Made by a program: the position numbers and the translations under genes | Part shown: piece after piece, positions 8,599-62,882 of the stretch | Numbering within the stretch: the first letter of the stretch is position 1 | How the letters are laid out: each line of letters starts with the position of its first letter | The notes under the pieces: model-generated | What the model was told of the DNA's origin: nothing | Seen by the model: the letters and a program-made list of their open reading frames with translations, nothing else | Database searches by the model: none | NCBI GenBank assembly: GCA_965230295.1 | Contig: OZ246001.1 | Location: 1,152,001 to 1,216,000 of the forward strand | Origin: Marinicella sp. | GTDB taxonomy: Bacteria > Pseudomonadota > Gammaproteobacteria > Xanthomonadales > Marinicellaceae | Length of the DNA: 64,000 nt | Direction: 5' to 3'

Positions 8599-10554
8599 TT
8601 ACTCAAAATCATCACTAAAAATGAGGTCATCTGACTCGAAAACCGCTCTTATCGTGTGGCTTGATTGCACATTGGTTAAACATTCATCGTCCTGGTTCAC
8701 CAAGGGACAGTTCAACCAACCGATGAAATCACTGCCTGACAATGGCGTGGCAATTAAGGTCACGATGGTGCCATTGAAATACACTTCTGAGCAGTCAACT
8801 CCACATGAGATACCACCCGGAATACTGACCACTGCCCCTTCACCAGAGCCTTCTTTTTGTATGGTCAATAAAAACTCATCTTCACCAATGCTGTCATACA
8901 CTTCGTCAAAACCAGCATCATACAAACCACCAGGATCACCAGGTAAGCCTTGTGGATTGGTGTTCTCATTGACCGGTGCATCTTGATTTTCAATATCGAC
9001 TTCAGTTGTCCAACTGAATGAATCTTGCAAACACATATCCACGCCAGGAGAACTGGCCAGTTGTCTGGCATCTCCAGCAGCTGGGTTGATCAGTTGAGGC
9101 GTGCCCATGTCGTAAATCCCGGTAGGCCAAGCATGGCTGTTGTCAATCAGGTTACATTGGCCGGTGATGATGGCCGAACCGCCAGATCGGTCATCAAAAC
9201 CCGATGAATCAGTGAGCACTGAGTTTTGAATGTCTATGAACCCCGTCAGCAAGACCGATACGTAAGAACCGGTATTTGAATCTGGTATGTGGTTATCAGC
9301 CATGGTCATGTGACTGACTTCAAATTCATCGTTGTTGTTATCAGAGCGCAACATCGCATTGGCGCTGTTTCTGATCATTCCAACCCGATTCATTCTGACC
9401 CTGGATCCACCGTTACTGGTGATCATGCCAACAGCCACTGGGGTGGGAGCGATGTATTCGCTTTGTTCAATGACAGTTCTGTTTAATTGAACCATCGAAT
9501 CATTCACATTAACCACGGAACGTTCATAACGCGCACCCTGAACCTCTGAACAACGGAACAGCAAATTGCAATCGTTGGTTTGGTCCATGATTAATTGGGG
9601 CGTTGCCGTGCCGCCTCCATTGGCGTAAATGGCTGCACCCTGATCGGCTTGTGGCGCATTGATGTGGGTGTTTTGTAACAGTACAAAACCGCTACCATTG
9701 ATGTAAATGGCGCCACCATTTTCTGCCACGTTGCCATCAAAAATGACCCGGTTGGCTCGGCCATCTGCGAACACTTCGCCGCCATTATCAACATATAAAC
9801 CGGCGCCTTCTTCTGCATCCATACCTGACAAGGTGCCCCGGCCTTCTATCCTGACTCCATCTTTAATTTCTAAGTAACAACCACTTCTGATGTGCAAATT
9901 ACCTCCCTTTAATCCCTGATTGCGATGTAATCTTCCACGTAAAATCACGGTCGAATTATTCCCGGTGCAATAAATGCCTCCACCCAGGATATTGTTGGTG
10001 TTGCCATTGAACTGAATCAATGAATTGGATAAGACATCCAAGTAGCTGCCACCTGAAACCACTATGCCTGATTGGTTGCTGCTCACTAAAACATTGTCCA
10101 AGGTGACCACAGCACCACCATTCAATACCAAGGCACGGGTGGCACTGGTCAAGGACATTTGAATGTTCCTGAAAGTCACCACAGAACTGCTTTCGTTCAA
10201 AGTATTGACCTCAAAAATTTCATTGTTGGTGTCACCGATGGTTGTTCTGCCGCTGACCGCTCCAAAACAATCCGGATAACCACCGACCAAGGTCAATTCA
10301 CCAGCACCTGATGAAGACCAGTCCTGCAGCACGTAACTGCCATTGCTGTTGCCTGTATAATTGACGGTGTTGGTCAATCGAATCTCATCTTGCGAATCAC
10401 CGTTCAAGGCCGCCACAAGCAGTGCTTGGTCTAATGTGCCAAAGACATTGCCCCCGTTGCAGTTGACTGAATTGCCAACCCAATAAAGACCTGACCAAGC
10501 TGAAGTGCTGAAAATAACCGTCAATGATAAAATAAATATTTTAGTTGTTTTCAT
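8599..10554 (-). CDS. Secreted beta-helix/adhesin-like protein with InlB B-repeat-like domain and C-terminal DLIFSDDFE motif
   Basis: Signal peptide MKTTKIFIL..SAWS; GG(A/G)IY-like repeats; LTIQKEGSGEG..VTLIATP..FIGW domain; RBS GAGGG before ATG 10554. Confidence 0.75.
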   Translation of the reverse strand: MKTTKIFILSLTVIFSTSAWSGLYWVGNSVNCNGGNVFGTLDQALLVAALNGDSQDEIRLTNTVNYTGNSNGSYVLQDWSSSGAGELTLVGGYPDCFGAVSGRTTIGDTNNEIFEVNTLNESSSVVTFRNIQMSLTSATRALVLNGGAVVTLDNVLVSSNQSGIVVSGGSYLDVLSNSLIQFNGNTNNILGGGIYCTGNNSTVILRGRLHRNQGLKGGNLHIRSGCYLEIKDGVRIEGRGTLSGMDAEEGAGLYVDNGGEVFADGRANRVIFDGNVAENGGAIYINGSGFVLLQNTHINAPQADQGAAIYANGGGTATPQLIMDQTNDCNLLFRCSEVQGARYERSVVNVNDSMVQLNRTVIEQSEYIAPTPVAVGMITSNGGSRVRMNRVGMIRNSANAMLRSDNNNDEFEVSHMTMADNHIPDSNTGSYVSVLLTGFIDIQNSVLTDSSGFDDRSGGSAIITGQCNLIDNSHAWPTGIYDMGTPQLINPAAGDARQLASSPGVDMCLQDSFSWTTEVDIENQDAPVNENTNPQGLPGDPGGLYDAGFDEVYDSIGEDEFLLTIQKEGSGEGAVVSIPGGISCGVDCSEVYFNGTIVTLIATPLSGSDFIGWLNCPLVNQDDECLTNVQSSHTIRAVFESDDLIFSDDFE

Positions 10555-10640
10555 GGGTATACCCTCAATATTAATTACTGGGGCATACGCAGAAACAATG
10601 GACATTGCGCCAAATGAATTTGATTTTTTATTTTGGACAT

Positions 10641-10665
10641 AAAAAAAGGCTCCTTGGGAGCCTTT
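10641..10665 (-). terminator. Intrinsic terminator after the symporter gene
   Basis: AAAGGCTCC-CAA-GGAGCCTTT followed by a T-tract on the minus strand. Confidence 0.8.
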
Positions 10666-10688
10666 CAATTCATTTAAATCATACAGAC

Positions 10689-11948
10689 CTATTCCTTGAT
10701 CACCCCTGCTTTAGGATCATCAAAAACGGTTTGGTCTAGTTGGCCCTGGGATTTGGCCACAATACAAGTCACTGCAGAATCGCCTGTGATATTCACTGCA
10801 GTGCGGGTCATGTCTAATAAGCGATCGATACCTAATATGATGCCGATACCCTCAATGGGTAAGCCCACCTGTAACAACACGCCTTGTAACATCACCAAGC
10901 CAGCAGAAGGTACGCCTGCAGAACCAATTGAAGCCATGGTGGCCATCAACACCACCATCATGATTTGCGTGGTGGTGAGGTCTACACCATAAGCATTGGC
11001 AATGAATACGGTGGCCACACCTTGCATGATGGCGGTGCCATCCATGTTGATGGTGGCACCAAATGGGATGGTGAATGACGCCACTGATTTATCAACACCC
11101 AACCGTTCCGTGTTGGTTCTGAGTGTGACTGGAATGGTGGCATTGGAACTGGAAGTACCAAAGGCAAATGACACAGCCCCTTCCATTTTTTTCAAGAACG
11201 TCAGTGGATTCAAGCCAGACAACAGTTTTAGCAAGACTGGATAAATCACCAAGGCATGGAAGATCAATAAACCCAGTACGGTAAAGAAATAACCAGACAA
11301 GGTTTTGATCGCATCCAATCCAAGTTCGGCGAAGACTTTGGCCAAAATGGCAAACACGGCATAAGGTGCGAAATGCATGATCAACATCACCAGCTTCATG
11401 ATCACTTCATTGAACGCCTTGAAGAAATCAATCACTTGTTCACCGGCTTTGCCAGCCATAGTCGCGCTTAAGCCAAGTAAGATGGCAAACACAATGACGG
11501 CCAACAGATTACCTTCTGCCATGGCTTTGATGGGGTTATCAATGATGCTTAAGATGACTTGTATGAATGTTTTACTTTCCTTCGGAACATAATTGATGTC
11601 TGTGGGAATCTCTGCCCCACTGCCTACCCCTATCAACAAGGCAAAACCCAAAGCAATGCCCAATGCAATGGCAGTGGTCAATAAATAGAAGGCCAGCGTC
11701 CGACCACCTATTGAACCCAGCATGGCCGGATCGCGTAATGCTGTGGTGCCACAGAACAAGGACACAAACACCAAGGGCACCACCATCATCTTCAAGGACA
11801 AGATGAATAACTGGCCAATGGTATAAAACAATCCATTGATGAGGTATTTATCTATCGCCGCATGGGCACTTAAATCTGAGAGGTTGAGGACCAGGCCCAA
11901 AATGGCACCGGCCACCATAAAGATGATGATTTTTTTGGTTAAAGTCAT
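10689..11948 (-). CDS. Dicarboxylate/amino acid:cation symporter (DAACS, GltP-like)
   Basis: AFGTSSSNAT, GATINMDGTA, IDRLLDMTRTAVN. Confidence 0.95.
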   Translation of the reverse strand: MTLTKKIIIFMVAGAILGLVLNLSDLSAHAAIDKYLINGLFYTIGQLFILSLKMMVVPLVFVSLFCGTTALRDPAMLGSIGGRTLAFYLLTTAIALGIALGFALLIGVGSGAEIPTDINYVPKESKTFIQVILSIIDNPIKAMAEGNLLAVIVFAILLGLSATMAGKAGEQVIDFFKAFNEVIMKLVMLIMHFAPYAVFAILAKVFAELGLDAIKTLSGYFFTVLGLLIFHALVIYPVLLKLLSGLNPLTFLKKMEGAVSFAFGTSSSNATIPVTLRTNTERLGVDKSVASFTIPFGATINMDGTAIMQGVATVFIANAYGVDLTTTQIMMVVLMATMASIGSAGVPSAGLVMLQGVLLQVGLPIEGIGIILGIDRLLDMTRTAVNITGDSAVTCIVAKSQGQLDQTVFDDPKAGVIKE

Positions 11949-12028
11949 GTTGTTCTGAAATTTTTGATGCCATGAATGATAGCTCATTCATGGCAAGATT
12001 GCACCTGTGGTTATTCAGCGGCTCTCAG

Positions 12029-13612
12029 TCACCATTGATCAGCTTCAGCCATCTGCCAATCTGCCGACCAAGAATCTGGCCTGTTTGAGTCATCCAACAA
12101 AGCCCCTTTGGCAATGGTCGGGAACATCTCTTCATACGATTTGATGATGGTCCCTTGTAAGCGATGCATGATGTGAGCCGGCTTTAATTCGCCTATTGAT
12201 TTGGCACCCGCCGCACCCAGTAACTCGGCCAAATTTTTCATCATTTGTCCATGATACCTGGCGACTCTTTGGCTTTTATCGCTGACCACCAAACCCACCA
12301 CCCTGGCAGGATCCTGGGTGGCAATGCCAGTCGGACAATGATCGGTGTTACAGGCACGGGACTGGATACAACCCAAGGCAAACATCATGCCACGAGCTGA
12401 ATTGACCGTATCAGCTCCCAAAGCCAAAGCCTTGATCAAATGGAAAGCTGAAAAGATTTTACCCGCAGCAATGACCCTGATTTCATCACGCAAGCCCACT
12501 CCAATGAGCGCATTGTTAACGGTGATCAATGCATCTTTAAGCGGTGTCCCCACTGAATTGGTGAATTCGATGGGTGCCGCACCAGTGCCGCCTTCACTGC
12601 CATCAATGGTGATGAAGTCAGGTTTGATACCGGTTTCCACCATGGCTTTACAAATGGCCAGAAACTCGCTGCGTTTACCCAAACACATTTTAAAACCAAT
12701 CGGTTTACCATCTGACAATTCACGCAATTGTTTAACAAATTGCATCAACCCGACCGGTGAATCAAAGGCCGAATGGTTGGGCGGTGAAAGCACGTCTTTG
12801 CCCATCGAAACATGCCTGATTTCAGCAATTTCTTCAGTCAATTTGACCGCAGGCAAGATGCCACCATGACCGGGCTTGGCACCTTGTGACAACTTAATTT
12901 CAATCATTTTGACTTGTTCCAAAGCGGCTTTTTCTTTGAACAAGTCCGGATCAAAGTTGCCATCTTTATCACGGCAGCCGAAATAACCAGTCCCGAATTG
13001 AAAGATCAGGTCACCGCCATGTTTCTTGTGATAAGGGCTGATACCACCTTCACCGGTGTTGTGAGCGAAACCACCTTTCTTGGCACCCAAATTCAAGGCT
13101 TCGATGGCATTTTTGCTTAAGGAACCATAACTCATGGCAGAGATGTTCATGGGCTTGGCCATATAGGGTTGTTGACATTCCGAGCCACCAAATTTCACAT
13201 GTAAATCATGTGCTTCAATGTGGGTGGGTGAGACGGAATGGTTGATCCATTCATAACCGTCTTGGTTGACATCCATGATGGTACCAAATGGACGCGTGTC
13301 TTTTTGCCCTTTGGCCCGTTGGTATACCAAGGATCGAAATTCCCTGGGTACCGGCGTACCATTCAAATCTGATTCGATGAAATACTGTTGAATTTCAACC
13401 CGAAACGATTCCAACAAATAACGAAAGTGTCCCAATATGGGATATAAGCGTAAAATGGCTCTTTTGGTCTGAAACATGTCATACAATCCCAATACAGCCA
13501 AAGGTCCAATCAACACGAAAAACCACCATGCCATGGGCCAATACTGGGCCCACAACACCACCAAAGCTGGCACCACAATCAATGCCAACACAAACTTTTG
13601 TCTCACTGTCAT
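12029..13612 (-). CDS. FMN-binding glutamate synthase family protein with N-terminal TM helices
   Basis: SAMSYGSLS, NTGEGG, EIKLSQGAKPGHGG, CIQSRACNTDHCPTGIATQ. Confidence 0.92.
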   Translation of the reverse strand: MTVRQKFVLALIVVPALVVLWAQYWPMAWWFFVLIGPLAVLGLYDMFQTKRAILRLYPILGHFRYLLESFRVEIQQYFIESDLNGTPVPREFRSLVYQRAKGQKDTRPFGTIMDVNQDGYEWINHSVSPTHIEAHDLHVKFGGSECQQPYMAKPMNISAMSYGSLSKNAIEALNLGAKKGGFAHNTGEGGISPYHKKHGGDLIFQFGTGYFGCRDKDGNFDPDLFKEKAALEQVKMIEIKLSQGAKPGHGGILPAVKLTEEIAEIRHVSMGKDVLSPPNHSAFDSPVGLMQFVKQLRELSDGKPIGFKMCLGKRSEFLAICKAMVETGIKPDFITIDGSEGGTGAAPIEFTNSVGTPLKDALITVNNALIGVGLRDEIRVIAAGKIFSAFHLIKALALGADTVNSARGMMFALGCIQSRACNTDHCPTGIATQDPARVVGLVVSDKSQRVARYHGQMMKNLAELLGAAGAKSIGELKPAHIMHRLQGTIIKSYEEMFPTIAKGALLDDSNRPDSWSADWQMAEADQW

Positions 13613-13617
13613 TTAAT

Positions 13618-13968
13618 TCAAAACTCCTTCAATACCCAACGCACTGGTTTCACACCTGAGTTGATCAAATCTTTACCTGAGCCTTTCAACTTATCGCGTT
13701 CTAATGGATCGATAAAATAAGGCACACCGTCATTAGGAATGACTTTGACCAAAACCAATTCGCCACGCTGGCGGTATTCTTCAATGGTTTGTTTTTTCTG
13801 CACAATGACTTTCACGCTGGTGGCATCTGCCGCAGGCTGGGTCAATTCGGCCAAAGTTTCAGCATCAGCGCCTGGCGGTGAATCATCATCTTGATTGACC
13901 GTTTCAGTTTGTGACCAAGAAACACCACAAAATACCAGTCCCAGGGCCATCCAAATACATCTTCTCAT
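13618..13968 (-). CDS. Periplasmic DUF2782-like protein
   Basis: Signal peptide; IEEYR..G....VKV.P..G.PYF and W.L..F C-terminus; RBS GAGGAG. Confidence 0.7.
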   Translation of the reverse strand: MRRCIWMALGLVFCGVSWSQTETVNQDDDSPPGADAETLAELTQPAADATSVKVIVQKKQTIEEYRQRGELVLVKVIPNDGVPYFIDPLERDKLKGSGKDLINSGVKPVRWVLKEF

Positions 13969-14126
13969 CTGCCTCTCCTCTTTGAGTTGAACCAAAACCC
14001 TTTCCGAGCCTTTGGCTTTAAATACTGACCCCTACAAACTGTAAATTATGACAAATAAATGCCAGCACACTTTGTACCCTCTCTTACATGATATAATGAA
14101 TACCCACATTTTGAAATCTGTTTTTA

Positions 14127-14621
14127 ATGTTAAACACCATGCCAAAACCTCAAAGTTTAATTGCCTTCTTGATGCTTACATCGCTGCTTATCGGCTGTTC
14201 TAACGAACCACAGTTAGACAAAAAAACCAAGTTGATGAACACCCTCACTGCCATGGAAACGGCCATTGAAGCCAAAGGTGTTGATGAATTTTTCACTCAT
14301 GTCAGTGATGACTTTGTCAGTCAGAAACGCGGCTGGGGTAAAAAAGATGCCGAACGTATATTGCGCATCAGATTGATGAAGAACAAAACAGTGCATGTAC
14401 ACCAAATGGTCAAGCGAGTTGAATGGCTGAACAACGGCGACCAGCAAGCCGAAGTTGAAGTGGTGGCGGCCATGGCTGGCACCGACATCAGCTTAAACGA
14501 CTTGCCTTCTTTCCGTGGTGACATGGTTAAATTCATCGTGACCTTTGAATTGATTAACGACGATTACATCATCACCCAAACCGAATGGCAACGAGCCAAC
14601 CCGGCAGATTTTGTGTTTTGA
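14127..14621 (+). CDS. Lipoprotein, probable NTF2-like fold
   Basis: Lipobox LLIGC; helix then HVSDDF and a beta-strand pattern. Confidence 0.65.
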   Translation: MLNTMPKPQSLIAFLMLTSLLIGCSNEPQLDKKTKLMNTLTAMETAIEAKGVDEFFTHVSDDFVSQKRGWGKKDAERILRIRLMKNKTVHVHQMVKRVEWLNNGDQQAEVEVVAAMAGTDISLNDLPSFRGDMVKFIVTFELINDDYIITQTEWQRANPADFVF

Positions 14622-15505: not shown

Positions 15506-15511
15506 CTGGGC

Positions 15512-44589: not shown

Positions 44590-45405
44590 ATGAAAAAAAG
44601 GACAATCTTGATCATGGGCATTGCCATGAATGTCAGTGCTGTTGCTGATTCAGGCGATGCAAACTTACTGGGTGGACCAACACTCATGACGGAAGATCTG
44701 GTGATTGGAACAGGTGGTTTTGGCGGTGGTGTTGCCAATGATACTTTCATTGTAGAATCACAAACTGGCACCAATGTTTCGCTGTTGACAGGCGTGCCAT
44801 TTTGGGGATCCACGTATGACCCTGCGGGAAACAGGGTTCTTTATACCACCAGTGGTGGCACCACGGATGGTGCGGATTTGTTGGCCATAGATGTAGATAC
44901 CGGGGCGACCAGTTCATTAGGGACGATCACAGCCAATACATTCGAACTAAGGATTGATGGTCTTGCTATTTCAAGAGGCGTTTTATACGGTGTTCATCAA
45001 TTTGATGACGACAATGTTTCTGGTTTATACAGCATTGATCTTGGTACCTTTGAAGCCACGTTTATTGCCTCCATACCTTCTGGTAATGTGAGCGGTATTG
45101 ATGCAGACCCATCTACAGGAATCATCTATGCAGTCGATGACACTGCAGCACAAGTACAACAAATTGATCTGGATGGCACCATCACCAACTTGGTAGCCTA
45201 CCCAGCAGGTTATACAGATGTTGATGGCTTGGCTCTAGGTTATGGTGTGGCGTATTTAATTGCTGATGAGGCTCAAGATATAGTGCCTCTTGACCTCAGT
45301 ACTCTTACCTATGGAACCCCCATCACCACACCCTTTACCGTGGCAGATACATTTTCTGGCGGCGCGTTTGTGCATGATGTTATTTTTGCGAATGGATTTC
45401 AATAA
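44590..45405 (+). CDS. Secreted beta-propeller-like protein with C-terminal DVIFANGFQ motif
   Basis: Signal peptide; repeats LYSIDL.T / IDADPSTG.IYAV / DGLA. Confidence 0.75.
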   Translation: MKKRTILIMGIAMNVSAVADSGDANLLGGPTLMTEDLVIGTGGFGGGVANDTFIVESQTGTNVSLLTGVPFWGSTYDPAGNRVLYTTSGGTTDGADLLAIDVDTGATSSLGTITANTFELRIDGLAISRGVLYGVHQFDDDNVSGLYSIDLGTFEATFIASIPSGNVSGIDADPSTGIIYAVDDTAAQVQQIDLDGTITNLVAYPAGYTDVDGLALGYGVAYLIADEAQDIVPLDLSTLTYGTPITTPFTVADTFSGGAFVHDVIFANGFQ

Positions 45406-45594: not shown

Positions 45595-46158
45595 TCAGTG
45601 ACCATACAAAACCGTTAGAGAACTAAGCGCCATCTGCGCTTCTCTACATTTTTTATCCAACTGTTGTTGATTGGCGACTTGGTGCTCTTGATCCAATTCT
45701 TCAGTCATTGTTAACAAGCCGGCAGTCAAATCTGCTCCGGACTGACTGAAATCCTGGTCACCTAATTGGGCTTCAATTCCATGCTGGTAATAATAGCGCC
45801 CCAAGGCAATGATGTTACTGGCACGGGATTCATAAGTTGATAATGCGGCAGCCACTTCTGGGCCACAATATTGAGCTGATACCCCATAAACTTGTGTGAA
45901 GGCATAACTTTTAGCGGCATCTGTTTTCGCCAACACCTGCATGGCTTTGAGTTTATCAGGGTCACTGATGCCTTGGGATTTATCTTTAAAAATTTGGTCC
46001 AGGGTGGCTTGCATGGCGGCTGTAAATTCAGCTTCATGTAACTGTTCAAAGGCCTTCAGATCTTCACTTTGGCAACCTTCGCAAGACTCAATGGGCCCTT
46101 GATTTGTGGCACAAGCCATGAGCATCAAAAAAAGTCCACAGACGATCAGTTTCATCAT
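45595..46158 (-). CDS. Lipoprotein, hypothetical
   Basis: Lipobox LMAC; start overlaps the dioxygenase stop. Confidence 0.7.
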   Translation of the reverse strand: MMKLIVCGLFLMLMACATNQGPIESCEGCQSEDLKAFEQLHEAEFTAAMQATLDQIFKDKSQGISDPDKLKAMQVLAKTDAAKSYAFTQVYGVSAQYCGPEVAAALSTYESRASNIIALGRYYYQHGIEAQLGDQDFSQSGADLTAGLLTMTEELDQEHQVANQQQLDKKCREAQMALSSLTVLYGH

Positions 46159-46808
46159 TACACTGCCTGCATAACGATGTTATACAGTAAGTTGGACTTA
46201 TCACCTTTGACTGATTGGGCCACCATCATCTTTTGTTCATCTTTGGTTTTACTCTGTAACAGACGATCCACTTGGTTCAATTCATGATCCGGAAAATACA
46301 TTTGGGTGGTCACTTCATCATAGCCTGATTTGCTGACTTTAAAGTGGATGTGTGGTGGGCGGGTCCAGGAATCTGAGACAGGGTATGGTCCGGGAATGAT
46401 GGTTTTGAACTTAAATCCACCTTGTTCACCACTTTGCACGATGGCCCAGCCTTGAAAGTTTGCGTCTAAGGGTGCCGGGTTGGCGTCGTGCGGGTGACGG
46501 TAACGCCCAGCTGCATTGGCTTGCCAAATGTCCACAGTGGCACCTTCCACTGGATTGCCGTCTATGTCGAGAACTTGACCTTGGATGGTCACCACTTCGC
46601 CTAAAGCCTTTTCGTCTTTACCTGTTACTTGAGTTAAATCAAAATCCTGGTCTTTTTGCGGGGTTATCGGGTAAAACGGGCCTTCAATTTCATCCGGGGT
46701 GATGGCATTGGCAGCCAAAACATTGGGCGTGATGGCAGTAATGGCACCGCCCGCCAATCCCATGCGAACAAACGAACGTCGATCTTGGTTGGGTTTATCT
46801 GTAGACAT
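46158..46808 (-). CDS. Tat-exported intradiol ring-cleavage dioxygenase-like protein
   Basis: DRRSFV twin-Arg signal; EGPFYP, WQANAAGRY.H, PGPY, RPPHIHF, TTQMYF. Confidence 0.88.
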   Translation of the reverse strand: MSTDKPNQDRRSFVRMGLAGGAITAITPNVLAANAITPDEIEGPFYPITPQKDQDFDLTQVTGKDEKALGEVVTIQGQVLDIDGNPVEGATVDIWQANAAGRYRHPHDANPAPLDANFQGWAIVQSGEQGGFKFKTIIPGPYPVSDSWTRPPHIHFKVSKSGYDEVTTQMYFPDHELNQVDRLLQSKTKDEQKMMVAQSVKGDKSNLLYNIVMQAV

Positions 46809-46817: not shown

Positions 46818-47543
46818 TCATTTTTCAGGGGGTTGCTCAAACCCATCAACAAAAATAAAATCTCCATTGGCGGTGTTAACAATCAGTTGATCAAATGCCA
46901 TGAATTCATTGTCATCGGTGTGGTTGTTGTTGGATATCACAACGATTTGTTCTACCGTTTGACCAAAAGGCACACCGCCCAGAGCAGAATAAATCAACTG
47001 ACCATTGATGAAATAATCGATTTCATTGGTTTGGGTCCTGGTTGCCACATACAGGGTGATATATTCACCGGTGGGATAATCGAAACCAGTGTCATAAAAA
47101 CCATTGACACCACCTGGTGAATCAAATACCAACAAATCACCGGTATTGGTGAATCGCAGGCGCCAAGTGATCAGGTTCTGAACCACCGATTGAGCCAACA
47201 AATCATAGGCTGCCCCATTCAAATCGCTGAAATACAGATCAACATATACCGAAGGAGACAGGTCAGATACTGCTGTATTGAATGTAGGACTGAATGCACC
47301 ACTTTGTGTTCCTGGTACCACTTGGCTGTCTCGACTGATGCGAGCATGTTGTGACCCAGAAGATGGCTGATTGGTATCCACCGTGGGTTGTTCTGGAATG
47401 TTGGGGAAATTGGACCAACCATTTTGGTCGACCAAGGGACCGGTTACAAAACCCTCTTCTGACTCAAAATCGATGAAATAAACGTCAGCTGATAATGCTG
47501 TCACGACAGTGAGCAAAACCAACAACGTGAATATTTTTAGCAT
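46818..47543 (-). CDS. Secreted beta-sandwich protein with C-terminal DFIFVDGFE motif
   Basis: Signal peptide; IDFES, QNGWS, YFINGQL (ConA-like strands). Confidence 0.7.
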   Translation of the reverse strand: MLKIFTLLVLLTVVTALSADVYFIDFESEEGFVTGPLVDQNGWSNFPNIPEQPTVDTNQPSSGSQHARISRDSQVVPGTQSGAFSPTFNTAVSDLSPSVYVDLYFSDLNGAAYDLLAQSVVQNLITWRLRFTNTGDLLVFDSPGGVNGFYDTGFDYPTGEYITLYVATRTQTNEIDYFINGQLIYSALGGVPFGQTVEQIVVISNNNHTDDNEFMAFDQLIVNTANGDFIFVDGFEQPPEK

Positions 47544-47633
47544 GATCAATCCTTATTTTGTGTTCACAGGCTTGGAATTGTACTGCAAAAAGCGTTATTT
47601 AACTGTTACCTGATTCACTGTTGTTACGATTTC

Positions 47634-51042: not shown

Positions 51043-53436
51043 ATGAAAAAATCAGTTTTACTGACCGTGTTGCTGTCACTCATGTGTGCCCCAAGCCTAT
51101 GGGCCATCGACACCAAACCATTGAGCAGTATAGATAAACTACAGTATCCAGTCATCCTGAGGATCTATTTTGATGAAACCAGTCAACTACAAACGTTGTC
51201 TGACAACAGCGATGTGTGGACCATCAACCCAAGCCAAAAATTTGCTGTGGTTTATGTCACTGACTCAACCAGCATGCAAGCCATCAACCAATTGGGCATG
51301 CCGATGCGCCCAGACCTACAGTTGATGAAGCAATACGAAGCCGATTTACGCCAAATTAACCAAGCCAAACAAGGTGGTGGCATACCAGGCTTTTCATGCT
51401 ATGGAACGGTGGCTGAAACTTTTCAACGCATGGATCAAATGGTTCTTGACCACCCTGATCTGGCTGAAATTGTTGACATTGGCGACAGCTGGGAAAAAAT
51501 TCAAAACGGTGCCCAAGGCGATGATTTAAAGATCATCAAAATAACCAATCAAAACACCAACGGTGATAAACCGGTGCTTTTCATGGCCTCCTCTATTCAT
51601 GCCAGAGAATACACCACAGCGGAATTGAACACACGATTCGCCGAATACCTGTTGGATAATTACGGTACTGATGCTGATGTCACATGGATCATTGATAACC
51701 ATGAAATTCATTTGTCTTTGATCACCAACCCGGATGGTCGTCACCGGGCTCAAACTGGCATCCTGTGGCGGAAAAACGCCAACAATAATTTTTGTGCAAA
51801 CTCCAATGATCGGGGTGTAGACTTGAACCGAAACTATCCATATGAATGGGGCATTGGTGGTTCTACTTCTGCATGCAGTGAAGTATTCATCGGACCCAGC
51901 AGTGGCTCTGAACCAGAAATCATGGCCCAAATGGATTACCTCAGAACCATATTTGATGACAACCGAGGGCCTGGTGCCAATGACCCTGCACCAGCAGACA
52001 CACCCGGCATATTCGTTGACATCCACAGTTTCAGTCAGCTGGTATTGTGGCCTTGGGGTTATACCAACAACAACACCCCCAATGACAATCAGCTACAAGC
52101 ACTCGGCAAGCGCACAGCGTTCTTCAACAATTACCGCCCTCAACCGGTGAATGACCTGGTTCTGACCGGTGGCGGGTCTATTGATGCCACTTATGGAGAG
52201 TTAGGCATGGCTTCATTGGCATTCGAACTGGGCACTGCATTCTTTCAGGATTGTGCCACATTTGAAGATCGCATCTTTCCAGATAACTTACAAGCCCTGC
52301 TGTATTTAGCCAGAGTGACCCAGGCACCTTATACACAGTCACTAGGACCTGACGTTGAAGACTTGTTGGTCATACCCAATGTCATCACATCAGACACCAG
52401 CATTCAAGTCACTGGTGTGGCTGATGATGACCGTTACAACCAGACCAACGGCGCCCAGTCTACCGACTCCATACAAAGTGTTACTGCCTACATCAATGAA
52501 TTACCCATCCATGCAGTCAGCGGCCAGTCCTTGAGTCCGGTTGATGGGGCTTTTAATGAAAGCCGCGAAGCATTCAGCGGCCTGATCAACACCAACGGCT
52601 TAGCACCAGGCAAAAACCTGCTCTATGTGCAAGCCAGTGACAACGCCCAAGGCGGTGGCACATTTGCCCAGTTTATCGATGTGGTTGAACCCCAAGATGT
52701 GGCTCAACTGTCCGGTACTGTACGCAATGCACTCACAGGAGAAACCATCGAGAATGCCTTATTAACCATCAACCAATCCCAAGCTTTGTCCAGTGCCAAC
52801 GGCAGCTATGTACAGTTTGTCCAACCCGGGACAGCGGACTTGTTGGTTTCAGCCGATGAATTCGCTGACTTTACTTTGTCAGGATTGAATCTGGCTGCCA
52901 ATACACAAACCACTCAAGACATCAGCCTACAACCGTTTTGCGATCTACTGAATGACGATGTCGAGTCAGGCAACACAGGCTGGCAAGCAGAAAGTCCATG
53001 GGCCATCAGTACCGATCAAAGCACCAGCCCCACACATGCCTGGACTGACAGTCCCGGTGGCGAATACAGCAACAACATCAACATCAGCCTGACCTCACCG
53101 GTCATCGAAATATCTGATGCCGATGCTGTGGAAGTCAGCTACATGAGCCTGTGTGACACCGAAGCCACTTTTGACTTTGGCTATTTAGAAGCCCAATTTG
53201 ACAATGGCACTTGGCAAGAAATCAACCGATGTGACAACCAACCTAACTGGCAACAAGCAACACATCAGCTGGCCTTACCTGGAGGTACCCAAAATCTCAG
53301 AATCCGTTTCCGCTTAGAATCCGATGGTTTTGTTACCCAAGATGGTTGGCATGTAGATGACATCGCCATCAAGGCCTCAGGTGCTGCTTGTGGTGATGTG
53401 TTGGATGACGTGATTTTTGAAGATGATTTCGAATAA
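51043..53436 (+). CDS. Secreted M14 zinc carboxypeptidase with accessory beta domains and C-terminal DVIFEDDFE motif
   Basis: Signal peptide; HARE, NPDG, WRKN, GVDLNRN, DIHS, AFELG; CarboxypepD_reg-like and ConA-like domains. Confidence 0.92.
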   Translation: MKKSVLLTVLLSLMCAPSLWAIDTKPLSSIDKLQYPVILRIYFDETSQLQTLSDNSDVWTINPSQKFAVVYVTDSTSMQAINQLGMPMRPDLQLMKQYEADLRQINQAKQGGGIPGFSCYGTVAETFQRMDQMVLDHPDLAEIVDIGDSWEKIQNGAQGDDLKIIKITNQNTNGDKPVLFMASSIHAREYTTAELNTRFAEYLLDNYGTDADVTWIIDNHEIHLSLITNPDGRHRAQTGILWRKNANNNFCANSNDRGVDLNRNYPYEWGIGGSTSACSEVFIGPSSGSEPEIMAQMDYLRTIFDDNRGPGANDPAPADTPGIFVDIHSFSQLVLWPWGYTNNNTPNDNQLQALGKRTAFFNNYRPQPVNDLVLTGGGSIDATYGELGMASLAFELGTAFFQDCATFEDRIFPDNLQALLYLARVTQAPYTQSLGPDVEDLLVIPNVITSDTSIQVTGVADDDRYNQTNGAQSTDSIQSVTAYINELPIHAVSGQSLSPVDGAFNESREAFSGLINTNGLAPGKNLLYVQASDNAQGGGTFAQFIDVVEPQDVAQLSGTVRNALTGETIENALLTINQSQALSSANGSYVQFVQPGTADLLVSADEFADFTLSGLNLAANTQTTQDISLQPFCDLLNDDVESGNTGWQAESPWAISTDQSTSPTHAWTDSPGGEYSNNINISLTSPVIEISDADAVEVSYMSLCDTEATFDFGYLEAQFDNGTWQEINRCDNQPNWQQATHQLALPGGTQNLRIRFRLESDGFVTQDGWHVDDIAIKASGAACGDVLDDVIFEDDFE

Positions 53437-58808: not shown

Positions 58809-58824
58809 TCAAAACCAACAATCG

Positions 58825-58858
58825 ATAAAAAAAGCACCGGTAAAGGTGCTTTTTTTAT
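58825..58858. terminator. Bidirectional intrinsic terminator after nrdJ
   Basis: ATAAAAAAAGCACC-GGTAAA-GGTGCTTTTTTTAT. Confidence 0.9.
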
Positions 58859-58867
58859 GGTCAAAAT

Positions 58868-59018
58868 AGTGAATGTCCTTGGGACTTCATTCACTTTTGT
58901 TCCTGACAAAAGCGAAAGCGGCCTCGGCGGACATGGCTTACTACTTCGGGCCTGCACTCTCTGACTCAGGAGGGCTTCGCCAACCGAGTGCGCCGGTCGA
59001 ACTGTCCGACAGCTCTCC
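58868..59018. repeat. Bipartite hairpin repeat element, full copy B
   Basis: Starts AGTGAATGTCCTTGGGACTTCATTCACTT, ends GGTCGAACTGT-CCG-ACAGCTCTCC; GC-rich. Confidence 0.7.
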
Positions 59019-59022
59019 GATT

Positions 59023-59442
59023 TCAACTGAAATGAATCAGATACAAAGCCACCGAAAAACACATGAATGAAATGATTGCACCAATGAGCGGTAATGAAAA
59101 CCAGTATTTTTTAGCGAGGATGGCATAACACAGTGCCATGAAGGGCAGCAGTGCCACCAACCAAATGTTCAACTGTAACACCTCGAAATGGCCAATGATC
59201 AATGGCACGTAAATAAAAGGCACCCAAATCACCCCCAAGGCATGACTGTAGTTGAAACCGATCCATGCTTTCCACAAGTTGGTGTTTTTGCTGATTTGAG
59301 GCACAGCATTTTGCATTGACTTAACCACTTCTTTGTCGATGGCATCAAATTTATGGGTGGCAAAAACATAAATAAAGTGCCACGCAGCAATGACGCCAAA
59401 GATGGCACAGCCAATAATCAGCAACATTTGTGCCAACGTCAT
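59023..59442 (-). CDS. Membrane protein, paralog 2 (LIC_13387-like)
   Basis: HFIY...KF, W.AW.GFNYSH..G, YWF..PL; paralogous to 59579-59992. Confidence 0.8.
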   Translation of the reverse strand: MTLAQMLLIIGCAIFGVIAAWHFIYVFATHKFDAIDKEVVKSMQNAVPQISKNTNLWKAWIGFNYSHALGVIWVPFIYVPLIIGHFEVLQLNIWLVALLPFMALCYAILAKKYWFSLPLIGAIISFMCFSVALYLIHFS

Positions 59443-59578
59443 TTGGCACCTATTTGAACAGCTTGCATGATATTCTACTCAAGTCAACAAGTTGACATCC
59501 AATTTAGGCCAGCCCAATTGGATGGTTTACTTAAACAAATATCATAACATGATCACCGAACTCTGCAAATTGCCTTGA

Positions 59579-59992
59579 TCACATGTGCATTTGGTAAAAG
59601 GCCACTACAAAACACAGCAGTGATACCAAAGAACCCAGCAATGGGATTTTAAACCAATACAATTTGGCCAAAACGGCATAAGCCAAGGCCATCATTGGTA
59701 ACAACAATGCCAAGAACATGCTATTTTGTAACACCGATATGTGATTGATGGCCAATGGTATGAAAATCAGTGGTATCCACAACACCCCGATTGAATGGCT
59801 GTAATTAAACCCCACCCAGGCTCTCCACATGGTGGTCTCTTTGGTTAAGACAGGTGTGGTTTGTTGCATGGCTGTGGTGACTTTACCGTCGTAAGCATTG
59901 AACTTGTTGGTGGATATAACATAGATGAAATGAACCAAACCCAAAACTCCGATCACCACAGATCCAATGATGATTAACAGTTGTGCTGACAT
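59579..59992 (-). CDS. Membrane protein, paralog 1 (LIC_13387-like)
   Basis: Same motifs as 59023-59442. Confidence 0.8.
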   Translation of the reverse strand: MSAQLLIIIGSVVIGVLGLVHFIYVISTNKFNAYDGKVTTAMQQTTPVLTKETTMWRAWVGFNYSHSIGVLWIPLIFIPLAINHISVLQNSMFLALLLPMMALAYAVLAKLYWFKIPLLGSLVSLLCFVVAFYQMHM

Positions 59993-60016
59993 GAAAATAC
60001 CCCTAATTGATGTTTA

Positions 60017-60502
60017 TTATTTAAACTGTTGACCAGTCATCTGACCGATGTAAACCGGCTTATAATCAACGATTTCAAATTCTCGAATGTTGGCCATATC
60101 ACGCCACATCATGGCATGCCCCTTGGTGTACTTAAAAACACTGACTCGACGTTTAAATTTCAGTGCTTCTGCTTCAGAAGCTTCTCTTAACTGTCCCAAC
60201 TTCACCACCAGGCGCATAGCTGGTGGTGATATAAATTGCCCCCTAAGCAAAGCTTTCAGCCAAAACCACCTACCTGCATCAACCGCCATAATAGTTGCAT
60301 ATTCACAGTGGTCAGCATTGGCAGGAATTTGCTTGGTGAATTTCTGAAAAAACCACCCTGAATTTTTATCTTTTAAAACAACACTGCCGATTGGCGACAC
60401 ATGAGGCTGGCCTGCGGCATTGACTGTAGACACAGAACAGAACATGGCTTGTGAGAACAAAGGCCTGATTTTTTCATTAAACAAGCGATCATCAATTTGC
60501 AT
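60017..60502 (-). CDS. Pyridoxamine 5'-phosphate oxidase-like (split barrel) protein
   Basis: SVSTVN..GQPHVSPIGS. Confidence 0.8.
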   Translation of the reverse strand: MQIDDRLFNEKIRPLFSQAMFCSVSTVNAAGQPHVSPIGSVVLKDKNSGWFFQKFTKQIPANADHCEYATIMAVDAGRWFWLKALLRGQFISPPAMRLVVKLGQLREASEAEALKFKRRVSVFKYTKGHAMMWRDMANIREFEIVDYKPVYIGQMTGQQFK

Positions 60503-60522
60503 TACTTTCTCCTGATTAAAAA

Positions 60523-60575
60523 AACATACCTTGTGGTATGTTGGACTGATAATGTAACATACCTTGAGGTATGCT
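60523..60575. promoter_or_regulatory. Tandem palindromic TetR operators
   Basis: AACATACC-TTGT-GGTATGTT (60523-60542) and AACATACC-TTGA-GGTATGCT (60556-60575) in the divergent intergenic region. Confidence 0.8.
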
Positions 60576-60646
60576 GCAAGGTATTTTGATCAGAATCACT
60601 GCAAAGAAAAACAGCGAATTGAAACCAATAACAGGACCAGAGAATC

Positions 60647-61183
60647 ATGACAAACGACAACAACAGCCAGCTGGCCTGGCTAAAAATGGGCATCCAAACA
60701 TTGGATACAGTGGGCTGGCGTGCGCTGAAAATCAATGAGCTGTGCCAACAGTTGAAGGTCACCAAAGGCAGTTTCTATCACTGGTTTACATCCAAACGAG
60801 ATTATGAAATGCAGGTTTTAAACTATTGGAAACTCAGATTCACACAAGGGTTTATTGAGCAAGCAGAATCTGGCAAAACCAGTCAGGAAAAGCTTTCATT
60901 GCTGGGTCGCCAAATCATTCAAGGTTGCATCGATGGCAACCGTTTGGAAATTGAAATCAATGCCTGGTCCACCCAAGATGATGAGGTCAAGACTTTTGTC
61001 ACTTCGGTCTATGAACAGCGATACGAGTACTTGATCAAGTTACTCAGTGATATTTATGATGACCCTGTTGAAGTTAAAAAGCATGGCCTCATCTTATACT
61101 CCCTGGTGGTCGGCATAGATTTCTTCTACCGCCAATTAGACCCACATGAACTGGAACTGGTTTTTTCTGATTACCTACAATAA
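60647..61183 (+). CDS. TetR/AcrR family regulator
   Basis: W...G...L...G...LKI..L...L.VTKGSFYHWF. Confidence 0.93.
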   Translation: MTNDNNSQLAWLKMGIQTLDTVGWRALKINELCQQLKVTKGSFYHWFTSKRDYEMQVLNYWKLRFTQGFIEQAESGKTSQEKLSLLGRQIIQGCIDGNRLEIEINAWSTQDDEVKTFVTSVYEQRYEYLIKLLSDIYDDPVEVKKHGLILYSLVVGIDFFYRQLDPHELELVFSDYLQ

Positions 61184-61193
61184 ATTGTGTCTA

Positions 61194-61931
61194 TCACCCT
61201 TTCTTAGATTTCTTTTTCTTCACGGCTCGGACCAAGCCTTGTTTTATGAAATCAAACCGATCTTTATGTATGGCTCGGCCCAGCGCTCTTAACATTGACT
61301 TCCTGGATCTGAGTTTACTGCCTCGGTGGGCATCCATATCCAATGAAACAAAGTGTTTGGCCCAATGTTGAGCAGTGGCATTGAGCTCTTCTTTGGCCAC
61401 CACCTGATCCAAGAAACCTGCTTCAACAGCCGTATTTGGGTCACATAATTCAGAAAGCAAAACAGCCCTATCATGATGTGATGTATTCAACCTTTGGCGA
61501 CAGATCTCAATGGCAGAATGTGGCATGGTTAAACCCAACTGAACCTCGTTGGCCACAATCTTGAATTCGCCTTCAACCCCAATGCGATAATCACCGGACA
61601 GCAACAAGAATGACCCCATGGCGATTGCATGACCATTGTTGGCAATGATGACAGGGGTAGGAAATGACAACAAGCGCTTTGATAAAGTGAAACCACCAAT
61701 CAACATGTCTAGGGTGTTTTTGGCACCAGTTTTCAATATATTTAAATCAAATCCGGCACTGAACACTTCGGCACGGCCAGTCAGTACAACCACAGCACCA
61801 GCCTCTTCAGCCTGATCCAAAGCCTGATTCAAATGGGCAATCATTTTCGGTGAAATCAGGTTGTTCTTGCCGTCATCCATCATGATCCAGGCAATGTTAT
61901 TTTCAATTTGATGTTTAACCAGTTTTTCCAT
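61194..61931 (-). CDS. Crotonase/enoyl-CoA hydratase family protein
   Basis: MDDGK.N, FSAGFDL, GHAIAMG.FLLLSGDYRIG, ANEV. Confidence 0.92.
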   Translation of the reverse strand: MEKLVKHQIENNIAWIMMDDGKNNLISPKMIAHLNQALDQAEEAGAVVVLTGRAEVFSAGFDLNILKTGAKNTLDMLIGGFTLSKRLLSFPTPVIIANNGHAIAMGSFLLLSGDYRIGVEGEFKIVANEVQLGLTMPHSAIEICRQRLNTSHHDRAVLLSELCDPNTAVEAGFLDQVVAKEELNATAQHWAKHFVSLDMDAHRGSKLRSRKSMLRALGRAIHKDRFDFIKQGLVRAVKKKKSKKG

Positions 61932-62015
61932 CTAAACTCCTAAGTGTTAAGCAACATGCCACTGAAATAGTATCAACAGCTTAGCATATGCTTGGTTAAG
62001 TCCTCATAAATATCA

Positions 62016-62882
62016 TCAATCAAAACCAGTCGCAAAAATCACATCGGAGCCATAATAAATTTGATGGTTATTGGGTTCTGAAACAGTGATCAACTGGTTA
62101 AAATCAGCATTGAAAGTGAAACCCTCCACCTGATTCTGCGGCAAAATCAATTGCGCATACTGCTGCCCGGAAAGGTCCACATCAATGATCCTGTGTGCCA
62201 AATGAGACATCAACAACAATCGACCAGTCCCCTCATCGAAATAACAACTGGACAAATCAGCACCGGCGCCCAAAAGACCGCTGAGCTGATTGAAAGACAA
62301 AGTTTCCGAGACCACCAAAGAGCCATCAGCAAAGGTCACATCTTCGCTGTTCGCTGGCCTGTTGAATTGCAACACCTGCATTTGCGGGTCTTCGATACAA
62401 ACATAAAAGACCTGATTGAAAGGATCATAGGCCACCCCTTCTCCCGAGTCACCGCCTGCCGTGTTGGCGTATGTCAGGGTTTGGGTGTCGACTTGATCCA
62501 AACGGATGTTGTGTGTATTCATCGGCGATTGCACAATAATCACTGAACCTTCAGCCCCTCCTTCTTCAACCAACGCATATTCATAGAAGTTACCATTGGC
62601 TCCTATGAATGTAATGCCTTCACAGTCTCCACAGGCCAATGAGCCGCAAAACTGCTCAGTCAATTGGCTGTCATAGCGGCAATATTGGTTTTGATGCACA
62701 GTTATGTATTGATCAGCTATCCAGTTGTAAGTGATGCCTGATAAATTGGCCACTGATGACAAGGAAGCTGCGGATGTGGGGTTTTGATAATGACTTAATG
62801 GCAGGGGTGATACGTTAATACCACCAGCTTGCGACATTAAAACCACAAACATAACTGCAAAAAGGCAGGCGTTTTTTTCCAT
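62016..62882 (-). CDS. Secreted SdiA-regulated-like beta-propeller with C-terminal DVIFATGFD motif
   Basis: Signal peptide; NLSGITY, DCEGIT, EGVAYDP, DLS, LLLMSH, QVEG.TF, VSEPN. Confidence 0.8.
   Translation of the reverse strand: MEKNACLFAVMFVVLMSQAGGINVSPLPLSHYQNPTSAASLSSVANLSGITYNWIADQYITVHQNQYCRYDSQLTEQFCGSLACGDCEGITFIGANGNFYEYALVEEGGAEGSVIIVQSPMNTHNIRLDQVDTQTLTYANTAGGDSGEGVAYDPFNQVFYVCIEDPQMQVLQFNRPANSEDVTFADGSLVVSETLSFNQLSGLLGAGADLSSCYFDEGTGRLLLMSHLAHRIIDVDLSGQQYAQLILPQNQVEGFTFNADFNQLITVSEPNNHQIYYGSDVIFATGFD

Follow-up and report, generated by a model that had tools for sequence, protein, structure and literature searches.

In this marine bacterium, a Marinicella species, roughly one protein in 25 carries the same short C-terminal tag, a nonapeptide with the consensus D-[LV]-I-F-x-[DNS]-[GD]-F-[ED]-COOH, and the carriers are exported proteins that are otherwise unrelated. 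We consider it probable (about 0.6) that the tag is a portable address label acting in trans on exported proteins. The tag looks undescribed: no Pfam model, NCBIfam model or paper covering it was found. Five short tails and eight long tails had no Pfam or NCBIfam match at E ≤ 10, and searches with exact tag strings and with words, supplementary files excluded, found no literature on such a tag. The original prediction, made from a window of 64,000 nucleotides (the whole stretch of DNA analysed here), proposed a sorting or anchoring system from five proteins. Its interpretation is supported, and the observation behind it is confirmed as real and understated.

All five C-termini match D-x-I-F-x-x-[GD]-F-[EDQ], as the prediction had it. 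On the minus strand, a secreted beta-helix-like protein (8599-10668; 27.5 bits against a genome-wide position matrix) with an InlB B-repeat (PF18998, residues 623-680) ends in DLIFSDDFE (8602-8628, stop at 8599-8601); its true start is likely an internal MKTTKIF... signal peptide. A secreted propeller-like protein of 271 aa, matched weakly by DUF4394 (44590-45405, plus strand, 24.3 bits), carries DVIFANGFQ at 45376-45402. The 243-aa secreted protein at 46818-47549 (minus strand, 24.0 bits), which has no Pfam match, terminates in DFIFVDGFEQPPEK, where the tag DFIFVDGFE (46836-46862) is followed by QPPEK. A 797-aa secreted M14 carboxypeptidase (51043-53436, plus strand, 29.1 bits; PF00246, PF13620) has a MAM-like C-terminal domain and the tag DVIFEDDFE at 53407-53433, and a 288-aa secreted propeller of the SdiA-regulated type (62016-62882, minus strand, 26.9 bits; PF06977 at residues 31-271) has DVIFATGFD at 62019-62045. 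A sixth secreted protein, cut by the window end (63181-64000, plus strand, 30.8 bits), had been predicted as possibly tagged as well; the complete gene, of 313 codons, closes with DLIFADDFE and a stop at window-equivalent position 64122, so the prediction holds. These six tails score 24.0-30.8 bits, against at most -1.9 bits for the other 55 gene models of the window; no cytoplasmic protein or lipoprotein there has the motif. Directly downstream of the gene at 8599-10668, an ECF sigma factor (PF07638, 7942-8583) and a Ser/Thr kinase with TPR repeats (5202-7949) occupy 5202-8583 of the minus strand. This pair is a recurrent neighbour of tagged genes and possibly regulates them; it is not part of the tag.

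Across the genome (G000), the 12-column matrix was run against 3,345 crude gene models, which, like the signal-peptide test used below, come from crude custom scripts rather than curated annotation. It found 142 sites in 141 models, of which 130 lie no more than 15 residues from the C-terminus, giving 130/3,345 tagged proteins (3.9%), far more than the original prediction had extrapolated. The tag is the exact C-terminal end in 68 of these 130, and at most 12 residues follow the motif in tagged proteins. Reversing the same protein sequences left one matrix site, which is not terminal. A literal regular expression matched 68 times among 9,247 frames that run from stop to stop over 80 codons or more; 44 matches abut the stop, 63 lie no more than 11 residues from it, and 5 are internal. 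A chance origin of the motif is excluded. Conservation spans 9-10 residues, and the residues upstream are unrelated between carriers. The I, F and F positions are near-invariant (91-94%) across more than a dozen unrelated folds, and the last tag residue is E in 53% and D in 35%, acidic in 88% of tags. The picture of a strictly terminal motif has to be qualified by the 12 of 142 sites that are non-terminal: three stand just past a signal peptide, three in linkers and three before a shared domain of ~90 aa, while the remainder look like false matches. Recognition thus cannot depend strictly on a free carboxylate.

The cargo is defined by export rather than by fold. Sequences resembling signal peptides occur in 112 of 130 tagged and 1,205 of 3,215 untagged proteins (odds ratio 10, p = 4e-29, by the crude script), and most of the 18 tagged proteins that fail the test look signal-peptide-bearing by eye. 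Some carriers, such as a DUF1501 protein, have Tat-type RRxFL signals, and lipobox-like signals were seen in two or three tagged proteins genome-wide, by the signal test and by eye. None of the 130 has a hydrophobic 19-mer after residue 50, which agrees with the predicted lack of a transmembrane helix. The six window proteins and 20 evenly spaced others together span more than a dozen unrelated Pfam families, as expected of a portable motif. They include M14, M12B and S8 peptidases, FG-GAP, cadherin/Big_9, DUF285, CotH with LTD, Spondin_N, arylsulfotransferase and SdiA-regulated propeller proteins, and the cargo is mostly non-enzymatic and adhesin-like. The tag sits directly past the last domain and outside known domain ends. 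In the SdiA-type propeller, PF06977 ends ~10 residues upstream of it; among the close homologues listed, which share 55-100% identity and include the protein of the window, 27/27 have a terminal tag or near variant, and in 4/4 distant homologues the protein finishes with the domain and has no tag. For the M14 protein, the tag is kept in 25/25 Marinicella-type sequences, again counting the window's own.

The phyletic pattern of the tag is typical of sorting systems. It is found in 24/24 genomes of the family and in most families of the order, as the original prediction had it for related Xanthomonadales-like bacteria, and 400 genomes of other Gammaproteobacteria gave only two single matches. 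Boundaries can be sharp: in family f2, 18 of 19 genomes have 0 tags and one (G537) has 17. In genus g8 the canonical form is absent or almost so, and a variant, F.DRF[EQ], occurs in 9/9 genomes at 17-97 sites, compared with 0-4 in the control. Such lineage-specific variants suggest co-evolution with a reader.

The short tag is also akin to a longer one in other phyla. The nonapeptide corresponds to the first half of a ~20-residue tag, [ILV]F.DGFESGDTS.WS..VP-COOH, which is common in metagenomes and some Acidobacteriota and is carried by one protein of the Marinicella genome. Among complete metagenome cases, 74 of 122 have a fixed-distance ending of 15 residues, the stop falling 12 residues past GFE. 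Of the Acidobacteriota, G569 and G691 have long tags, and G679 has 25 (51 F.DGFE sites). A homologue search with a long-tag tail brought up only 13 proteins and told little more. Like the short motif, the segment F.DGFESGDTS.W is similar to the opening strand of jelly-roll (CBM/MAM-like) domains, a further qualification to the original prediction.

Several known systems share features with this tag. GlyGly-CTERM is a short portable C-terminal tag on Sec-exported hydrolases that use the type II system and are retained at the surface, is co-distributed with its processing enzyme and marks six proteins in Vibrio (PMC13393428). The likeness to the GlyGly-CTERM/rhombosortase system of Vibrio and Shewanella lies in a short, portable C-terminal tag on exported proteins. 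That system has a Gly-Gly motif, a transmembrane helix, a basic tail and cleavage by an intramembrane protease, whereas the present tag consists of nine acidic-aromatic residues with no helix and marks ~130 proteins in this genome rather than the six of Vibrio. PEP-CTERM/exosortase, MYXO-CTERM/myxosortase and LPXTG/sortase likewise have dozens of unrelated secreted carriers per genome and a patchy phyletic spread. Their signals are tripartite, with a signature, a hydrophobic helix and a basic tail; here the helix is absent from all 130, an E or D ending takes the place of the basic K/R tail, as predicted, and no curated CTERM model in NCBIfam or Pfam matches. Four or five separate proteins of the same genome have transmembrane-type tails (..PVPVP.., a helix and K/R) with weak matches to an exosortase-linked model.

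The C-terminal domain (CTD) of T9SS substrates is a parallel in being a C-terminal signal on Sec-exported soluble proteins. It has no membrane helix, occurs on tens to hundreds of proteins, and takes its carriers across the outer membrane to be attached to a special LPS glycan. A Wzm/Wzt glycan exporter also adjoins the gene block that goes with the present tag. However, the CTD is a folded unit of ~70-100 residues with its own machinery, compared with nine residues (~20 in the long form) here; no CTD model in NCBIfam or Pfam matches the tag, and to our knowledge T9SS is confined to another phylum, the Bacteroidota. Type I secretion signals act in one-step export and lack an N-terminal signal peptide, in contrast to the 112 of 130 carriers that pass our test. 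Short aromatic C-terminal peptides are recognised after export in the outer-membrane beta-signal/BamD, the DegS-activating YxF motif and pilin C-termini with PapD-type chaperones, by beta-strand addition or in PDZ pockets. There the final residue is aromatic and the carriers are barrels or pilin subunits, whereas this tag is mostly E/D-ended and its cargo is soluble and diverse; peptidases, propellers, FG-GAP and cadherin-like proteins are not outer-membrane beta-signal cargo. Type II substrates are linked to the tag by genomic association only, as an Xps-type T2SS is present in tagged genomes and also in 4/4 tag-free genomes tested.

Other explanations are less convincing. The recurrence of the motif immediately upstream of stop codons is what a translated DNA-level element (a repeat, a recombination site or a terminator remnant) or an ORF-calling artefact would produce, and codon usage refutes this. 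Every synonymous codon occurs at each conserved position of the tag, which indicates selection on the protein. TGA, TAA and TAG follow the tag in genome-like proportions, order genomes with G/C-ending codons at matched sites encode the same peptide by different codons, and a reversed-pattern DNA control gave 0 in 41/41 genomes. A role as a processing or turnover signal, in which the tail is a C-terminal degron or a maturation site for a periplasmic or extracellular protease or peptidase and controls when exoproteins are activated or removed, not where they go, is very unlikely. PDZ-bearing proteases, among them Prc/Tsp, DegS and CtpA, recognise short motifs at the C-terminus, the tagged set includes an M14 carboxypeptidase and several proteases, and trimming just past GFE could turn the long form into the short one. 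Nevertheless, proteins that end exactly at the motif have nothing left to remove, the cargo is largely without enzymatic activity, and the neighbourhoods examined show no protease gene that goes with the tag.

It is unlikely, if less so, that the tag is a structural cap acting in cis without dedicated machinery. Such a cap might be what is left of the first beta-strand of a jelly-roll (CBM/MAM/LamG-like) domain, a mini hairpin (IF, an xDG turn, then FE), perhaps cation-binding, that stabilises the C-terminus of extracellular proteins or guards it against carboxypeptidases and tail-specific proteases, and that spreads as a harmless, useful ending. The resemblance to a jelly-roll strand (N[PG]GFE.G..GW) leaves room for an origin that is purely structural. 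Many N-terminal jelly-roll domains begin like the long form (N[PG]GFETGDTTGW...), and 16 of the 122 complete long-form sites are either starts of this kind or internal in some other way. The motif is tolerated internally and after signal peptides, its predominantly acidic last residue is of the kind that tail-specific proteases disfavour, and neither the neighbourhoods nor the distribution of the candidate g734 beyond the order revealed a receptor. Yet a jelly-roll continues for a beta-sandwich of ~130-200 residues after the GFE strand, while the stop here comes within 0-12 residues at 130 of 142 sites. The all-or-none boundary in family f2, the genus-wide switch of a core residue from G to R in g8, the constancy of I, F and F on unrelated folds and the fixed ending of the long form also argue against a cap.

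If the tag is an address label, soluble cargo would cross the inner membrane by Sec or, in few cases, Tat, with the tag following its last folded domain directly. A dedicated periplasmic or outer-membrane receptor would then read the tag and either pass the folded protein to an outer-membrane secretion step, for which the Xps-type type II system would be the obvious route, or keep it at the cell surface. Both the reading in trans and its outcome are what we infer from these patterns. Within this reading, a secretion or hand-over signal is our leading choice, surface retention or docking on a scaffold or glycan a close second, and some other trans-read role a minor possibility. A more specific version can be proposed only tentatively: the GFE tail would be the linear targeting signal of an unrecognised sorting route, in which a T2SS-associated module (a lipoprotein, g734, g733 and a PpiC isomerase) binds the tag of folded periplasmic proteins and delivers them to the secretin or to a dedicated surface glycan or lattice. 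The ~20-residue form of Acidobacteriota and many environmental bacteria would then be the ancestral state of this system.

This module is the best lead for the tag reader, although its involvement is rather doubtful. Directly after the secretin gene xpsD lie genes for a small lipoprotein, g734, a secreted protein of 420 aa and a PpiC-type isomerase, and the Wzm/Wzt exporter comes next. g734 (G000 855496-856917) encodes a secreted protein of 473 aa that belongs to no known family; by sequence, g734, g733 and g735 had no match in the PDB. At least two canonical tags are present in 94/120 genomes with g734 and 1/31 without, an association that is overstated because related genomes are not independent. 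Within family f2, G537 has two g734 copies besides its tags and the other 18 genomes have neither, and family f12 contains an independent contrast of this kind. Tag-free genomes lack the block after xpsD. Four of the eight g734 loci in the Marinicella genome adjoin a tagged gene (p = 0.0016), and one g734 paralogue is itself tagged.

The block thus co-occurs with the tag inside the order but not beyond it, where g734 as a universal partner is not supported. The family occurs in 12/399 other Gammaproteobacteria, and 5/5 tested have no tags above control. Its N-terminal domain is found in 16/151 Acidobacteriota, including the long-tag genomes G569 and G691; four others with the domain that were tested had only background F.DGFE counts, and the long-tag genome G679 has no detectable homologue. 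One 260-contig assembly in our set (G529) has 24 tags without g734, g734 copy number is unrelated to tag number inside the genus, and foreign tagged loci totalling 1.6 Mb contained no g734 member.

It is a long-standing question how folded periplasmic proteins are selected for exit by the type II system, and by diderm bacteria generally, and we know of no linear signal for substrate choice by this system. A portable tag with natural variants and tag-free relatives makes that question directly testable. With a profile of both tag forms, thousands of exoproteins now labelled 'hypothetical' in Xanthomonadales-like bacteria, Acidobacteriota and metagenomes would gain a new annotation, and a true export or display tag would offer a compact handle for secretion or surface display.

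Other candidate machinery was considered. An all-against-all comparison of genes no more than two genes from tagged genes in the Marinicella genome, and of ORFs from 119 + 119 foreign loci, returned only paralogous cargo, Ser/Thr kinases with ECF sigma factors, and the g734 family. Secretin number (three here, 1-4 in relatives) bears no relation to tags. The PDZ domain of the classical GspC is a candidate reader; tag-free G025 and G036 also have a secretin ORF of the same length class (~630 aa), which is weak evidence from ORF length only. An XpsN-like protein is present in 38/41 relatives and Xps-type protein M in all four tag-free genomes tested (G513, G549, G500 and G476), so T2SS presence alone does not explain the tag.

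In Marinicella sp., unrelated exported proteins end in a common nonapeptide tag, D-x-I-F-x-x-[GD]-F-[EDQ]. The window corresponds to G000:C1:1152001-1216000 of the source genome (G000, a single contig of 4,008,074 bp with 44% G+C), and two window-encoded proteins have named close homologues from Marinicella species. Translation and ORF listing returned the five window C-termini of the original prediction exactly, and the gene cut by the window end (start 63181), which had been expected to carry the tag too, comprises 313 codons in the whole genome and terminates in DLIFADDFE. A genome-wide search of 9,247 stop-to-stop frames, each 80 codons or longer, with the regular expression D.IF..[GD]F[EDQ] gave 68 matches, with 44 directly at the stop, 63 no more than 11 residues from it and 5 internal. 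An iterated 12-column tag matrix, cut off at 14 bits, was applied to 3,345 gene models, which are crude and derived from ORFs scored by codon usage. It found 142 sites in 141 proteins, 130 of them no more than 15 residues from the C-terminus and 68 exactly at it; the same 3,345 proteins, when reversed, gave one site, which is non-terminal. From first to last column, the residue frequencies are D 87%, L 40% or V 20%, I 91%, F 92%, x, D 54%, N 22% or S 15%, G 58% or D 22%, F 94%, and E 53% or D 35%. Within the window the class is sharply bimodal by matrix score, with six tagged tails at 24.0-30.8 bits and the remaining 55 models at or below -1.9.

The tag is tied to signal peptides, as expected. 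By our own crude signal-peptide test on our own crude gene models, 112 of 130 tagged proteins were positive versus 1,205 of 3,215 untagged ones (odds ratio 10.4, p = 4e-29), and most of the 18 tagged proteins missed by this test appear by eye to have signal peptides. As previously claimed, the tag lacks a transmembrane helix, with a hydrophobic 19-mer past residue 50 in 0 of 130 tagged proteins, and its carriers have different folds. Pfam searches of the six window proteins and 20 evenly spaced tagged proteins from across the genome returned many families: peptidases (M14, M12B, S8+PA+P-domain), arylsulfotransferase, Spondin_N, ThuA, DUF1028, DUF1501, DUF6923/DUF4394, CBM96, cadherin/Big_9, FG-GAP and DUF285 (two proteins each), CotH+LTD, an SdiA-regulated propeller and InlB B-repeat. 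No Pfam family was found for five of the 20 evenly spaced proteins.

A few tag carriers have Tat-type RRxFL signals. Two proteins, at G000:C1:3398354-3399637 and 1044597-1045925, combine Tat-type twin-arginine signals with GFE-type tails; one of them, a DUF1501 protein, is picked up by the tag matrix, and the other, with the tail DPIFASGLD, by the loose regular expression only. If these Tat-signal carriers are real, the tag would be read after export by either inner-membrane route. Between two tagged genes of the window (45595-46808, minus strand) sit a dioxygenase (PF00775), whose signal is of a Tat-like RRSF type, and an ORF that resembles a lipoprotein and matches nothing in Pfam.

The tag starts directly after known domain ends. 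PF18998 ends at residue 680 and the tag begins at 681, while in a tagged propeller PF06977 ends at 271 of 288 residues. All 27 close propeller homologues listed (55-100% identity, including the window's own) carry the tag or a close variant of it at the C-terminus, in some cases followed by 2-14 additional residues, and four of four distant homologues terminate at the domain end without it. The tag is likewise retained in 25 of 25 Marinicella-type M14 sequences. It is conserved at the protein level, not the DNA level: its conserved positions use every synonymous codon in roughly genomic proportions, the stops that follow it (TGA 63, TAA 50, TAG 17) are in genomic proportions, and other genomes of the order encode the identical peptide with different, mostly G/C-ending codons.

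The distribution of the tag is lineage-bound. The strict DNA pattern (tag plus stop) occurs in 35 of 41 relatives and its reversal in none of the 41; among 400 other genomes spread across the class, two have a single match each. The earlier statement that such tails occur in related Xanthomonadales-like bacteria was borne out: all 24 other Marinicellaceae genomes, which are among the 35 matching relatives, carry 2-31 sites. In a one-genome-per-species scan, the 80 of 119 stretches listed belong almost only to Marinicella/Marinicellaceae, Dokdonella, Rudaea, Tahibacter, Rhodanobacteraceae and Lysobacterales, and also to Aquimonas, Ahniella, Pseudolysobacter and some 'Alcanivoracaceae' MAGs; isolated matches elsewhere among those listed are near the estimated chance level (about 200 in 596 Gb). 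We also scanned 151 genomes of the order, each with completeness of at least 90%, for the looser pattern F..GFE followed by a stop. This pattern occurs in every genome of families f1 (19/19), f3 (7/7), f4 (19/19), f5 (2/2), f6 (2/2), f9 (10/10) and f11 (16/16), and in part of f8 (15/19), f12 (11/18), f7 (10/19) and f2 (1/19). Of 30 loci read in other families, 24 again have the motif 0-3 residues before the stop. Apparent negatives bear variants: their M14 homologues end in DDVFFLGNFD (G033) or PQIFDDRFEEPAG (G030), and F.D[RS]F[EQ] occurs 17-97 times in nine of nine genomes of genus g8 (control 0-4) and only 0-5 times in f2. Because variant tags exist, 'tag-free' calls are provisional.

A longer form of the tag extends beyond the order. 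Distant M14 homologues from other phyla, one labelled Thermoanaerobaculia, have the tail [IV]F.DGFESG[DN]TS.W[SA]..VP at the stop. A metagenome scan for GFE[ST]GDT[ST].W found at least 119 loci and at least 126 sites. Among the 122 complete cases in the matches listed, the stop falls exactly 15 residues past the G of GFE in 74 (as in GFESGDTSAWSATVP), within 10-22 residues in 25 and within 23-70 in 7, and the sequence upstream is diverse. In Acidobacteriota (151 genomes) the long pattern is patchy, with 48 sites in G569, 25 in G679, 3 in G691, one in each of two genomes and none in the others. The source genome has a sole long-form protein (3860455-3861678, minus strand), which ends in VFSDGFESGDTSAWSASCP and joins the short and long tag families in one organism. 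Since the long form occurs in other phyla and once in this genome, the nonapeptide of the order corresponds to the front half of a broader tag family.

Such tails have been seen before, but to our knowledge no mechanism has been described for them. Pfam-A and NCBIfam gave nothing at E <= 10 for five short and eight long tails, whole-protein scans returned no CTERM model, and string and word searches of the literature, which did not cover supplementary files, returned nothing relevant on such a tag. The tag differs from every described class known to us. In contrast to sortase, exosortase and rhombosortase signals it has neither helix nor basic tail; unlike the T9SS CTD it is not a folded domain; its carriers, unlike T1SS substrates, have an N-terminal signal peptide; and, unlike the beta-signal, it has an acidic last residue.

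What is seen fits a tag for sorting or recognition that would be read after export: a short terminal motif is added after the fold of many unrelated exported soluble proteins, is selected at the protein level, and is all-or-none between lineages with lineage-specific core variants. Such a tag might hand its carriers over to the Xps secretin, or might keep them on a lattice or glycan that neighbouring genes make. Its main rival as an explanation is a structural cap that acts in cis, without dedicated machinery, and derives from the first strand of a jelly-roll. Of the 122 complete long-form cases listed, 16 are internal or N-terminal, and many of these are N[PG]GFETGDTTGW starts of jelly-roll domains past a signal peptide; the sharp phyletic switches of the tag, however, argue against a cap.

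If the tag is read after export, a candidate reader is encoded beside a secretin gene. The source genome encodes PilQ, a full Xps-type T2SS and a classical GspC(PDZ)-D-E-F cluster, and the number of secretins does not follow the tag. Directly after xpsD lie a lipoprotein (g735), g734 (473 aa, secreted; neither a family nor a PDB relative was found), g733 (420 aa, secreted) and g732, an isomerase of the PpiC type. Next come Wzm, Wzt (which has a Wzt_C domain), a methyltransferase and GT2 glycosyltransferases. This conserved block (G000:C1:845001-866189, outside the window; loci L154 and L309) keeps its order from xpsD-g735-g734 through the Wzm/Wzt genes in the tag-bearing genomes G537, G035, G028 and G030, with g733- and g732-like ORFs detected in only some of them. 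The provisionally tag-free G513, G549 and G476 have xpsD without the block after it, and Xps-type protein M is present in these and in tag-free G500.

A g734 profile matched 120 of the 151 genomes of the order. At least two canonical tags occur in 94 of 120 genomes with g734 versus 1 of 31 without it (103 of 120 versus 1 of 31 when the nine g8 variant genomes are added), and Fisher values overstate these associations because related genomes are not independent. Within-family contrasts support the association. In f2, G537 alone has tags (17) and alone has g734, which was absent from four other f2 genomes checked separately; in f12, g734 is present in five of five genomes with at least two tags, and the 11 genomes without it have at most one. 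The source genome has 11 g734 family members at 8 loci, 4 of which adjoin a tagged gene (p = 0.0016), and one of the 11 carries the tag.

Several findings count against this lead. In G529, 24 tags occur without g734, although this is a 260-contig assembly with g734-bearing congeners. Conversely, g734 occurs in 12 of 399 other Gammaproteobacteria, and five of five tested lack tags above control. In the tag-rich G569, a g734-homologous N-terminal domain (hhalign 93%, E = 3e-7) lies beside a Wzm-like gene; the distant g734-like protein with such a neighbour in an Acidobacteriota genome is at L311:11911-13263. This domain occurs in 16 of 151 Acidobacteriota, a tally that includes G587 (flagged unpublished); yet F.DGFE counts are only at background in domain-bearing G603, G704, G643 and G631, and G679 has 51 such sites without the domain. 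Copy number of g734 does not follow tag number. The block after xpsD is thus a necessary-looking companion of the tag inside the order, but not a sufficient one.

Neighbouring genes also include possible regulators of tagged genes. The tagged gene at 8599-10668 is directly followed downstream by genes for an ECF sigma factor (PF07638) and a TPR-repeat Ser/Thr kinase (window 5202-8583, minus strand). Among paralogues in the source genome, 9 of 21 for the kinase (p = 0.008) and 5 of 9 for the ECF factor (p = 0.014) lie no more than three genes from a tagged one. By eye, a Ser/Thr-kinase-like neighbour family appears at 11 of 119 Xanthomonadales-type loci with tagged genes, and a similar family at 6 of 119 such metagenome loci.

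Some motif sites are not terminal. Three large secreted proteins (G000:C1:1421560-1424421, 1502239-1506363 and 3172793-3178705) share a C-terminal domain of about 90 residues after the motif; it finishes in DGDG..N..D..P[FL]G and occurs in this genome only in these three. Two others (1551084-1558106, minus strand, and 3210889-3213927) have the motif directly past the signal peptide; one is 2,340 aa and by eye SpvB/Rhs-like. A separate small set (3056-3868, 820214-821107, 982792-983415, 2778439-2783760 and 2285626-2286402) has [AP]VPVP tails with a hydrophobic helix and K/R, a classical exosortase-type architecture. Four to five of these gave weak NCBIfam matches to the exosortase-linked model 'midcut-by-XrtH', a rough positive control, and one has a choice-of-anchor J domain.
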